From: Candidatus Thorarchaeota archaeon
Lineage (GTDB): Archaea > Asgardarchaeota > Thorarchaeia > Thorarchaeales > Thorarchaeaceae
Direction of reading: 5' to 3'
Assembly: GCA_008080745.1 (NCBI GenBank)
Contig: SHMX01000001.1
Coordinates: 480,001 to 512,000, forward strand
Length of the DNA stretch: 32,000 nucleotides
Shown here: positions 4,528 through 26,491 of the stretch, piece after piece
Layout: each line of letters starts with the position of its first letter
Position numbering within the stretch: position 1 is the first letter of the stretch
Made by a program: the position numbers and the translations under genes
The notes under the pieces: generated by a model
Database searches by the model: none
Told to the model about the DNA's origin: nothing
Seen by the model: the letters and a program-made list of their open reading frames with translations, nothing else

Positions 4528-6354
4528 CTATTTCCCAACGTAGTAATATTCACCCTCGGCCTTCTGTTGTTGATCGAGTCTGGAACCAGTCTTGTTAACA
4601 CGAGGGCGTCCTGTCTGGGGATCCCTACGGAAAGTGACTCCCATTTGCTTAAGGAATGCATTCATACCCCTTCTTAGAGTGGTTACACTGTGGGCAACAC
4701 CCTCTTTCCCTGGAACACCATCAAATACGACCATACTATCACTCAAATAATCCGCCATCAGAATGCTATGCTCTACAACGAATGCGGTCTTCAGTCTAAA
4801 CTGCATCATATGGCGAATAGCACGAGAGCTAGCTAAACGTTGTTCAATATCAAGAAAGGCAGATGGTTCATCAAAAAGATAAATGTCCGCATCTTGTGCA
4901 AGACAGGCTGCTATAGCAGAACGTTGGAGTTCTCCACCACTTAAATCTCCAACACCGTGATCTAATAGATGTTCCAATTCCAATTTTCGAATCACTGATG
5001 TCCTGAAATCAGATGTATCCGCAGTAGAACCCCCGGTTTCTCTTAGTAGCATTCGTACAGTTCCAGGATAGGAGGCATCAATGTATTGAGGCTTATATGC
5101 TACTTTCAACTCCAAACCAGTGACAGTCTTCTTGGGTACCTCACCCTCATCGGGTTCAAGAATGCCTGCAAGCATTTTAACAAAAGTTGTTTTTCCAATG
5201 CCATTAGGACCTAAGATGCCAACTATTTGTCCTTTAGCGACCCTTCCACCTTTTACAGTCAGTTCAAAATCCTCGAATTTCTTCGTCATATCACCATATT
5301 CGAGTAATGTTTCACCATGTGCAAATTCACTGTCTTCTGCAGTCATACCTTTGAATGAGATAGAAGTATCACGAAATCGCATGTTCTCATCAGGAATATA
5401 TCCATCAAGAAAGATATTTACTCCCACACGTGTGCCATGCGGATGAGAAACAATTCCATACACACCGGGATCGCCATAAAACATACATACGAGATCGGAA
5501 ACATAATCGAGTATCGAAAGGTCATGCTCAACAATAACAACAGTCTTTCCGATTTCTGAAAGTTGTCGGATAGCCTTCCCAACACGTAATCTCTCACGAA
5601 CGTCAAGATATGCGGTTGGTTCGTCAAAAAAGTAGATATCTCCATCTCGAACAATTGCAGCAGTAATTGCAGTACGTTGTAACTCCCCGCCGCTAAGGAA
5701 TTTGATTGGTCGATCCCAGATGCTCTCTAGGTTCATATCGTCTCTAATTTCTTTCAGACGTCCTGAAGAATCAGCACCCTCCAATAAATCACTGATAGGT
5801 TTGTCAGCAATTGACGGGACCTTTGGCAGGTCTGTAATATTCTGGGGTTTCAAAATGGGAGTGATATCACCCGCTTGAATCCGTTCGAAGAAGGGTTGGA
5901 GTTCTGAACCACGATACTGGAGAATGATTTCTTCCCAATCCGGAGGGTCATCATATCTACCAAGATTCGGTTTCAATTCACCAGCAAGAATCCTCAGAGC
6001 AGTGGTTTTTCCCACACCATTCGGACCGATTAATCCTAATACTCTGCCTTCCTTGGGAATCGGCATTCTGAAAAGCTTGAACCCGTTAGCACTATAACGA
6101 TGGCTCGTATCGACTTCGAGTTGTTCTGGAAGGTTTACAATAGTGATTGCATTGTAAGGACATTTCTTCACGCATATTGCTTCGCCTGAGCACAAAGACT
6201 CGATAATAGTGGGTGGCTTGTCAGGACCATCAGTAAATACGACGGTCTCATCACCTGTTCGAACCCTTGGACAGAATCGTCTGCATTCATGTGTACAATC
6301 TTTTGGTCTACAACGAAATTTATCAAGTACAGCAATACGCATTCTAATAGCCAC
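4528..6354 (-). CDS. abce1: ABCE1/RLI ribosome-recycling ATPase
   Basis: N-terminal Fe-S domain, YSANGFKL, two NBDs (GPNGVGKTT, GPNGIGKTT, LSGGELQR twice, DEPT/DEPS), C-terminal FRRDPQTGRPRVNK..S..D..QK..G.YY. Confidence 0.98.
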   Translation of the reverse strand: MAIRMRIAVLDKFRCRPKDCTHECRRFCPRVRTGDETVVFTDGPDKPPTIIESLCSGEAICVKKCPYNAITIVNLPEQLEVDTSHRYSANGFKLFRMPIPKEGRVLGLIGPNGVGKTTALRILAGELKPNLGRYDDPPDWEEIILQYRGSELQPFFERIQAGDITPILKPQNITDLPKVPSIADKPISDLLEGADSSGRLKEIRDDMNLESIWDRPIKFLSGGELQRTAITAAIVRDGDIYFFDEPTAYLDVRERLRVGKAIRQLSEIGKTVVIVEHDLSILDYVSDLVCMFYGDPGVYGIVSHPHGTRVGVNIFLDGYIPDENMRFRDTSISFKGMTAEDSEFAHGETLLEYGDMTKKFEDFELTVKGGRVAKGQIVGILGPNGIGKTTFVKMLAGILEPDEGEVPKKTVTGLELKVAYKPQYIDASYPGTVRMLLRETGGSTADTSDFRTSVIRKLELEHLLDHGVGDLSGGELQRSAIAACLAQDADIYLFDEPSAFLDIEQRLASSRAIRHMMQFRLKTAFVVEHSILMADYLSDSMVVFDGVPGKEGVAHSVTTLRRGMNAFLKQMGVTFRRDPQTGRPRVNKTGSRLDQQQKAEGEYYYVGK

Positions 6355-6469
6355 CTTGTTTATGTCAATTCCCGTTGTACTGGATTGCTATTTAGGAGTT
6401 TGGCTCTATCCGCCTTTTTACAAAACCTTTTCAACCTTGTAAGAGTTGAAGAATACGGAGTATAACACG

Positions 6470-6700
6470 ATGGACCTCATTGAAAAACTGCTTAATCTTT
6501 TCAACAGACGTGGTAAATTATTCAGTGGAACTATAAATCAACCAAATGATCTTATGAAATCGATACAGGTAGTGAGGGCTTATGCATTCCAGAAAATTAC
6601 CGGAAAGAGATTAGTTATTCCCACTCTAGAGTCAAATCATAGTAAGAGTATCGCTGAATCACTCTCCCCTATGAAACGCCTGGCGAGAAGGGATATATAG
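6470..6700 (+). CDS. Possible small hypothetical protein (76 aa)
   Basis: The only sizeable ORF in an otherwise empty ~370-nt gap, with GGAG shortly upstream of ATG 6470. No recognisable motif; could be non-coding. Confidence 0.35.
   Translation: MDLIEKLLNLFNRRGKLFSGTINQPNDLMKSIQVVRAYAFQKITGKRLVIPTLESNHSKSIAESLSPMKRLARRDI
6694..6700 (+). promoter_or_regulatory. Candidate TATA box for the box C/D sRNA
   Basis: TATATAG starting 28 nt before the sRNA terminal stem, with purine-rich GAGAAGGG upstream (BRE-like). Confidence 0.45.
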
Positions 6701-6721
6701 ACCGGCGATTCCAGTTTTATA

Positions 6722-6794
6722 GCGGGATGATGATGTAGCAGGGAAGGTGAACGTCCATCAACCGTCGTGATCCTATAAACCGCAATCTGACCGC
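6722..6794 (+). ncRNA. Box C/D 2'-O-methylation guide sRNA
   Basis: Terminal stem GCGG/CCGC; box C ATGATGA 6727-6733; D' GTGA 6747-6750; C' GTGATCC 6767-6773; box D CTGA 6787-6790; two 13-nt guide spacers; K-turn geometry at both motifs. Confidence 0.88.
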
Positions 6795-6857
6795 CAAGTT
6801 CCAATTATTCTGTTATTAATAGATCATATACTCCCCAATTTGATAGTATGGAGTTAG

Positions 6858-7280
6858 ATGAACGTGCCTCCTTTCGAATGTAATCATGATGGGTCATGCG
6901 AAGAAGTCAGATTATGCTGCACGGATACAGAAATGACCCTGACTCGGGCAGATGCAGAGCGCATCAATGCACTAGGTTATGATAGGGAGGAGTACCTGGT
7001 GAAGAGTGAAGATGGATTCTGTCAGCTCCGAAACATCAATGGAAATTGCTATTTCTACGATCAGAAGACCAAATTATGTAAAATATATGACCACAGGCCA
7101 GAAGGATGCCGATATTACCCAATAGTCTATAATGTCAGAAAAAAGAAATGCGTTGTGGATTATGACTGTCCATCACGGAAAACAGTAACGTCACAAGACC
7201 TCAGGAAAGTATGTAAGAATGTTCGAGAGCTGGTCGAAAAATTAATGAGGGAGGCAGAATATCGTGATGGACCGTGCTGA
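6858..7280 (+). CDS. YkgJ/UPF0153 family cysteine-cluster protein (putative Zn/Fe-S binding)
   Basis: C..C..CC N-terminus, then C.F.D....C.IY..RP..CR.YP motif. Confidence 0.9.
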   Translation: MNVPPFECNHDGSCEEVRLCCTDTEMTLTRADAERINALGYDREEYLVKSEDGFCQLRNINGNCYFYDQKTKLCKIYDHRPEGCRYYPIVYNVRKKKCVVDYDCPSRKTVTSQDLRKVCKNVRELVEKLMREAEYRDGPC

Positions 7281-26424: not shown

Positions 26425-26491
26425 GCGGTTCAGTTACCCCTAAGGTCGTTCATCTTGTTCCGATCACATATAGGTAAGTCATCATTACCGC
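26425..26491 (-). ncRNA. Box C/D 2'-O-methylation guide sRNA
   Basis: Minus strand GCGGU-a-AUGAUGA-CUUACCUAUAU-GUGA-ucggaacaag-AUGAACG-ACCUUAGGGGUAA-CUGA-ACCGC: 5-bp terminal stem, perfect boxes C and D, 11- and 13-nt guides. Confidence 0.85.

Follow-up and report, generated by a model that had tools for sequence, protein, structure and literature searches.

A conserved box C/D guide RNA gene of Thorarchaeia and its predicted target in 16S rRNA

The DNA between positions 6722 and 6794 on the forward strand of the window is, to judge from its sequence, a real and unannotated box C/D guide RNA gene of an Asgard archaeon of the Thorarchaeia. The window is the whole 32,000-nt stretch of DNA that was analysed, taken from a 3.16-Mb genome assembled from marine sediment, and coordinates refer to it unless a contig is named; the sequencing runs listed as containing the stretch are two DNA runs of one marine-sediment study, probably its source, and include no RNA run. 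The explanation that accounts best for the observations is an independently transcribed archaeal box C/D sRNA gene of about 73 nt, and we regard it as highly probable. The predicted task of the RNA is most likely the sugar methylation of one conserved cytidine in the small rRNA. The kind of RNA is well known; the family is itself uncatalogued, and the RNA gene predicted at 6722-6794 is, within this analysis, the founding member of a Thorarchaeia-wide family.

The RNA is closed by a terminal stem of four base pairs, in which GCGG (6722-6725) pairs with CCGC (6791-6794). Box C (AUGAUGA, 6727-6733) and box D (CUGA, 6787-6790) form a K-turn next to this stem, with a three-nucleotide bulge (G6726, A6727 and U6728) and tandem sheared pairs of G6729 and A6730 with G6789 and A6790. 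Box C is followed by the D' guide, UGUAGCAGGGAAG (13 nt, 6734-6746), whose +5 nucleotide is G6742, and by box D' (6747-6750), which reads GUGA, a variant of CUGA. An internal stem of 3 bp, formed by ACG (6751-6753) and CGU (6763-6765), carries an apical loop of 9 nt, UCCAUCAAC (6754-6762), between D' and C'. Box C' (GUGAUCC, 6767-6773) then leads into the D guide, UAUAAACCGCAAU (13 nt, 6774-6786), whose +5 nucleotide is G6782. The internal K-turn has its own bulge (C6766, G6767 and U6768) and its own sheared pairs, of G6769 and A6770 with G6749 and A6750, and C6772 and C6773 pair with G6747 and G6746. All of these elements lie on the forward strand.

This anatomy agrees in every part with the original prediction, which had described perfect boxes C and D with a 4-bp terminal stem and a 3-nt K-turn bulge, an internal D'/C' pair with a stem of its own (ACG/CGT), symmetric 13-nt spacers, and G6782 and G6742 as the fifth nucleotides upstream of D and D'; all can be read directly from the letters at 6722-6794. 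Its reading of the element as an archaeal box C/D sRNA is likewise upheld, every defining feature at the sequence level being present and conserved, with the single exception that the spacers are 1 nt longer than the usual 10-12. Spacers of archaeal C/D RNAs are typically 10-12 nt (PMC4644070). The comparison with archaeal C/D sRNAs, of which the sR families of Pyrococcus, Sulfolobus and Pyrobaculum have been reviewed (PMC7994747) and catalogued (PMC4644070), otherwise reveals the same boxes C, D', C' and D, the same terminal K-turn, two guides, the N+5 rule, an rRNA target, L7Ae, Nop5 and fibrillarin genes in the host, and a short gene with its own promoter. The RNA at 6722-6794 differs in its 13-nt spacers, in having a 3-bp stem and a conserved loop of 9-10 nt instead of a short K-loop, and in matching no Rfam family: an Rfam scan of the whole stretch gave nothing at gathering thresholds, and one of the 301 nt from 6600 to 6900 gave nothing at E-values up to 10.

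The gene is intergenic. It begins 21 nt after the stop of a small forward-strand ORF (6446-6700), which has 84 codons counted from a TTG, or 77 from an ATG at 6467, and no Pfam match, and it ends 63 nt before a downstream gene for a CxxCxxCC-domain protein (6858-7280). No terminator-like site was found. A minus-strand ORF of 55 codons (6637-6804) overlaps the RNA gene. Upstream, a BRE-like purine-rich element, GAGAAGGG (6685-6692, forward strand), is followed by a TATA-like element, ATATATAG (6693-6700, forward strand), which lies at -29 to -22 and overlaps the stop codon of the upstream ORF (6698-6700). Archaeal transcription starts lie about 26 nt from the centre of the TATA box, and from a centre at about 6696.5 the start is thus predicted at about 6722-6724, where the RNA itself begins. 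The TATA-like element had been noticed in the original prediction, and its position is conserved across the family: across 58 distinct upstream flanks the fraction of A+T is highest, at 0.83-0.95, between -30 and -27 from the first base of the RNA, GAAAG or AGAAG precedes this peak in most of them, and BRE and TATA are kept at -32 to -25. The C-terminus of the small ORF (...LARRDI), with its stop codon inside the TATA element of the sRNA, also recurs upstream of the sRNA in several genera.

On the other side of the small ORF lies the gene for the ribosome-recycling ATPase ABCE1/RLI (4528-6354, minus strand, 608 aa). Of 48 loci searched around ABCE1 homologues, 46 from Thorarchaeia-type genomes, 30 have the RNA upstream of ABCE1 in divergent orientation. 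Conservation in syntenic regions of relatives had been suggested as a check on the original prediction, and the position beside ABCE1 is indeed retained in these 30 loci.

Taken by itself, the motif exceeds chance only weakly. In the 3.16-Mb genome a strict scan (RUGAUGA, 45-75 nt, CUGA and four Watson-Crick stem pairs), which is too strict for counting the C/D sRNAs of a genome, gave three matches against one in a reversed control. Chance is excluded because of conservation across relatives and not because of the motif. A blastn search with 6650-6860 against 40 relatives found the element in 14 or more genomes belonging to the same family, and the matches span only positions 74-144 of the query, or 6723-6793, similarity stopping at the ends of the RNA. 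A covariance model built from 15 copies found exactly one strong copy in 58 of the 85 other genomes of the family, representing 11 of its 16 genera, with E-values from 1e-16 to 1e-26. The same model found none in the sister family, of which one genome was searched, and none in five genera of the family whose D-guide target sequence is intact. A pattern search through 400 genomes of the phylum placed the RNA family in the Thorarchaeia family only, apart from three sporadic matches. Boxes C and D are invariant in the 59 homologues, which answers the further demand of the original prediction that the boxes be conserved in relatives. The strict scan also recovered a second box C/D candidate in the window, at 26425-26491 on the minus strand, with box C AUGAUGA, D' GUGA, C' AUGAACG, D CUGA and a terminal stem.

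The stems covary. Among 59 aligned copies (49 distinct sequences, in an alignment that had been fitted to the model), 95.6% of the cells in the proposed structure pair, and in six of the nine pairs both partners vary. The observed pairing and covariation were reached by none of 500 shuffles, and slid controls were 13-41% paired; the picture from a MAFFT alignment was the same as that from the model-fitted one. Three of the four pairs of the terminal stem covary: the first is UA in 24 cases, GC in nine, UG in four and AU in two, the second is CG in 37 and UA in eight, and the third has changed once from GC to CG. The first pair of the internal stem covaries as well (GC 18, AU 16, GU 13), and the second is CG in 47 and UA in two. 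The homologues are 69-75 nt long and vary in length by non-multiples of three, which argues against a coding sequence. Thermodynamic folding energy is no better than that of shuffles (z of about -0.1 to -0.8); such poor scores are usual for C/D RNAs, which are scaffolded by protein, and are uninformative for them. RNAalifold recovered the terminal stem alone, together with three probably spurious pairs.

The internal C'/D' module is closed by a stem, 3 bp long with a loop of 9-10 nt in the family, and is therefore a K-turn rather than a K-loop. Both of its boxes, D' GUGA and C' GUGAUCC, depart from consensus. The sequence GAUGA(C/A)C of relatives aligns at the columns occupied by CGUGAUC in the window's genome, and on this alignment the C' strand is read as a 3-nt bulge, GA, one unpaired base and CC, an arrangement that mirrors box C. 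The CC of C' pairs with a GG that spans the end of the D' spacer and the start of D', and the pair that the first G of D' makes with a C of C' is GC in 39 of 43 cells. In canonical boxes a G-C pair joins G6 of box C' to C1 of box D'; in the RNA at 6722-6794 it is replaced by C-G. Across the family, D' takes the forms GUGA, GCGA, UUGA and GUUA, and C' is of the type xUGAYCC. A C' of the form GAUGG occurs in all three distinct sequences that have D' GUUA and is absent from all others. The combination amounts to a double change from A.G to G.U at the second sheared pair, and it is sensible solely if the D' and C' boxes face each other.

The apical loop (6754-6762; columns 39-49 of the second alignment) has a core, CAUCA, that is kept in most copies, the majority sequence being CCUCAUCAG. 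Its complement, UGAUG, stands in boxes C and C', and in the minimum-free-energy fold of relatives the loop pairs with C' as a 6-bp hairpin. An additional pairing of the loop with rRNA was considered and rejected: the loop of the window's genome reaches at most 6 nt, and the majority loop reaches 8 nt at a site in 23S rRNA that has no relation to the targets of the guides.

The same genome carries a 16S gene (contig C2:589938-592348) and a 23S gene (contig C9:71161-74266), against which the guides could be compared. The D guide makes 10 contiguous Watson-Crick pairs, through guide positions 2-11, with the sequence CUUGCGGUUUA of its own 16S rRNA, and its +5 nucleotide, G6782, lies opposite the C that corresponds by alignment to E. 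coli 16S position 952. In the standard secondary structure of 16S rRNA we take this position to belong to the 5' strand of helix 30. The original prediction had proposed this target from a conserved archaeal 16S motif, and it is present in the organism's own 16S with 10 Watson-Crick pairs and the +5 nucleotide on C952; complementarity of at least 9 nt spanning +5, on which the original prediction had been made to depend, is thus found. Guide shuffles reached 10 Watson-Crick pairs in 12 of 1000 cases. Positions 1-11 of the D guide are essentially invariant in the 59 homologues and the unpaired positions 12-13 vary, the Watson-Crick G-C pair at +5 is kept in all 59 copies with box D intact, and changes from A to G at guide position 2 retain a G-U pair. 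The target sequence is itself invariant in nearly all 16S genes of the family, and the two genomes in which it has changed (G013 and G020) have no copy of the RNA. The C952 region of 16S rRNA is a well-supported candidate target of the D guide. Targets among tRNAs were discarded: in the 22 tRNAs parsed, the best match was 8 bp including G-U, and none reached 9 bp.

The D' guide has two candidate sites in 16S rRNA, which share GUCCCUGCU, and it probably pairs with an element of this sequence. Site A, at local position 561 (E. coli about 600), makes 9 Watson-Crick pairs with the D' guide of the window's genome. Site B, UCCCUGCU, makes 8 plus two isolated pairs and would place +5 on C1382. A match in 23S rRNA at local position 2608 (9 bp including one G-U) ranked below both. 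The original prediction had named C1382; the site does exist, and it is the best one for the majority guide of the family, but the site near 600 fits the window's genome slightly better, with 9 Watson-Crick pairs against 8, so that the assignment is ambiguous there. The majority D' guide, UGAAGUAGGGAUG, makes 12-13 pairs (two of them G-U) at site B and 10 at site A, and the boundary between its conserved and variable parts, at positions 12/13, fits site B. In the window's genome guide position 11 is U in place of A, and the facing position of its own site A is A in place of U; the change is thus matched at site A, a compensatory pair that favours site A in this genome. In all genomes with both a 16S gene and an RNA of the common D' type, the best 16S matches of the D' guide are the same two sites. 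A D' target appears to be real for the family, and in the window's genome it may be either C1382 or the site near 600. Once G-U pairs are allowed, the complementarity of the D' guide is not significant against shuffles, and alone it is statistically not strong.

The D' half of the RNA is also the more changeable. Its spacers range from 10 to 15 nt in the family and are mostly 13, and spacers of 12, 13 and 14 nt would place +5 on C1383, C1382 and C1381, respectively. In one genome of the same genus (G001) the D' guide has decayed and its complementarity is lost. In two other lineages it has been replaced, with the D guide unchanged: the new guide of G054 (locus L084) matches its own 16S at local position 251 with 10 bp, and that of G016 (locus L014) matches its own at local position 195 with 8 bp.

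The 16S genes of the group contain several insertions. A hairpin of about 30 nt is inserted directly after GUCCCUGC, at E. coli about 1386 and inside site B, in several relatives (G004, G017, G024 and G003; loci L030, L036, L037 and L038). The hairpin may be a spliced micro-intron or an expansion segment, and if it stays in the rRNA it would leave 9 bp of pairing at site B. The 16S gene of the window's own genome has an insertion of 849 nt (L001 2404-3252) at E. coli about 907/908, which encodes a 262-aa protein with a LAGLIDADG domain and is probably a homing-endonuclease rRNA intron, judged by its coding content. Compared with those of relatives, the same gene has another two insertions of about 30 nt, and the 16S matches of many relatives break at one and the same model position, 828/829.

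The pattern of change in the two guides bears on what the RNA does. A genuine C/D sRNA could act chiefly as a chaperone of 16S folding, with methylation absent or incidental, or could use its D guide alone while D' decays. We think either of these unlikely, for all that the D' half lends itself to such views: its guide makes only 8-9 bp, the G001 copy has lost its complementarity, and the shifting of +5 among C1381-C1383 by spacer variation speaks against a strictly conserved D' methylation site. The two candidate targets are moreover separated by more than 400 nt, which resembles the long-range sR15 and sR17 of Nanoarchaeum equitans, proposed chaperones (PMC4644070). Pairing alone, however, would not need the exact distance between guide and box D, which is kept in all copies. 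Nor does a chaperone sit well with the universal Watson-Crick G-C pair at +5 beside an intact box D, or with the methyltransferase genes of the host.

The remaining alternatives concern whether there is an sRNA gene at all. The short distances to the neighbouring genes, 21 nt past one stop and 63 nt ahead of the next start, and the failure to find a terminator-like site would suit a cis-regulatory element or untranslated region of a neighbouring mRNA, on the 3' side of ORF 6446-6700 or the 5' side of gene 6858-7280. Against such an origin, similarity ends at the ends of the RNA, the downstream flanks differ between genera, nearly all copies have their own BRE and TATA at the right distance, and conservation falls in blocks that coincide exactly with the C/D boxes and with the guide complementary to rRNA; we consider it very improbable. 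Least credible of all is that the motif arose by chance or as part of the minus-strand ORF at 6637-6804. The overlap of that ORF and the meagre excess of the strict scan (three against one) are what can be said for it, and they are outweighed by retention of the element in 58 other genomes with covarying stems and by lengths of 69-75 nt whose differences are not multiples of three. To the extent that sequence data can, the pattern of conservation refutes this reading, and we give it next to no weight.

An independently transcribed box C/D sRNA would find its protein partners in the same genome, where a fibrillarin gene (C2:517955-518623) adjoins a Nop5 gene (C2:518746-519420) and a gene of the L7Ae family lies at C2:299937-300212. 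By analogy with characterized archaeal C/D sRNPs, L7Ae would bind both K-turns, the terminal one of C/D and the stem-closed internal one of C'/D', and Nop5 and fibrillarin would then assemble on the RNA. The D guide would pair with nascent 16S rRNA over CUUGCGGUUUA, the 5' strand of helix 30, and fibrillarin would methylate the 2'-O position of the C at E. coli 952. The D' guide would pair next to the 3' strand of helix 28, with +5 on C1382, or with the look-alike near 600. If D' uses C1382, the RNA would hold together two sequence boundaries of the head domain of the small subunit during assembly, as a long-range double guide or a chaperone.

The nearest functional analogues of the RNA would appear to be sR15 and sR17 of N. 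equitans, long-range double guides on domain III of 16S rRNA (Dennis et al. 2015, PMC4644070). In helix 30 both strands pair with sR15, as those of helix 28 do with sR17 (PMC4644070), and a chaperone role in the folding of domain III, by the joining of distant strands, has been proposed for both (PMC4644070; PMC7994747). The targets of sR15 are G930 and G1218 in the paper's own numbering (PMC4644070), and the D guide of sR17, read from its catalogued sequence, would have its +5 on about U1384. The RNA at 6722-6794, in contrast, would take one strand of each helix (at C952, and at C1382 if site B is used), and its sequence and target nucleotides differ from those of sR15 and sR17. No AAACCGCA guide was found in the supplements of Dennis et al. 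One catalogued RNA, sR116 of T. tenax, contains UAAACCGCGCC and was considered as the same guide, but it misfits the T. tenax 16S rRNA at this site. The literature searched contained no paper cataloguing the C/D sRNAs of Asgard archaea, which is no proof that none has been published.

A candidate C/D sRNA in another Asgard family seems to address the same nucleotide. Recovered by the pattern search of 400 genomes, it lies in genome G373 (contig C1:682-741; locus L108 676-746) and has a box C, a C' of AUGAGGA, a 12-nt D guide, ACAAACCGCAGG, a box D and a flanking stem of GGC with GCC. Its D guide, like that of the RNA at 6722-6794, would place +5 on the C at E. coli 952, here within CCUGCGGUUU, a target that was read from G375 of the same family, G373 having no assembled 16S gene. 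The two RNAs differ at guide positions 1-2, which are GG in the G373 candidate and AU in the RNA at 6722-6794, and position 2 follows the letter of the target, which is C in the family of G373 and U in the Thorarchaeia family. Beyond the guide the two RNAs share no detectable sequence similarity, and the spacer of the G373 candidate has the canonical 12 nt.

In archaea, box C/D guide RNAs correspond to the snoRNAs of eukaryotes, whose closest known relatives are the Asgard archaea. Eukaryotic box C/D snoRNAs share with the RNA at 6722-6794 the RNP, the guide rule and a longer structured region between D' and C'. We know of no 2'-O-methylation catalogued at the human or yeast 18S equivalents of E. 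coli 952 or 1382, the nearest human 18S marks being Am1678 and Cm1703. No claim of homology to eukaryotic snoRNAs is made for the putative guide RNA described here.

The internal module and the two predicted targets can be combined into a larger, more speculative scheme, which we think doubtful. The RNA would serve mainly as a clamp in the assembly of the head, holding helix 30 and the strand beside helix 28, with a second dock for D' near 600, and its loop would act as a mask or switch of the K-turn. The 3' major domain is bounded in sequence by the strands of C952 and C1382, and the CAUCA of the loop would mask UGAUG intramolecularly and so time the formation of the C'/D' K-turn. If the scheme were true, the longer, stem-closed internal module would represent a more snoRNA-like architecture in the Asgard lineage.

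The understanding of how C/D RNAs work is unchanged by this family, and its value lies in particulars. Its guides furnish an example of turnover, with the D guide frozen and the D' guide drifting or replaced. For the biochemistry of K-turns it offers internal motifs that vary in nature, with GUGA opposite UGAYCC or GUUA opposite GAUGG. With its covariance model, one gene of this kind can be annotated in roughly two of every three Thorarchaeia genomes. Finally, it yields a concrete prediction for these organisms, that the C at E. coli position 952 of their 16S rRNA would carry a 2'-O-methyl group, and at least one other Asgard family may share the modification.
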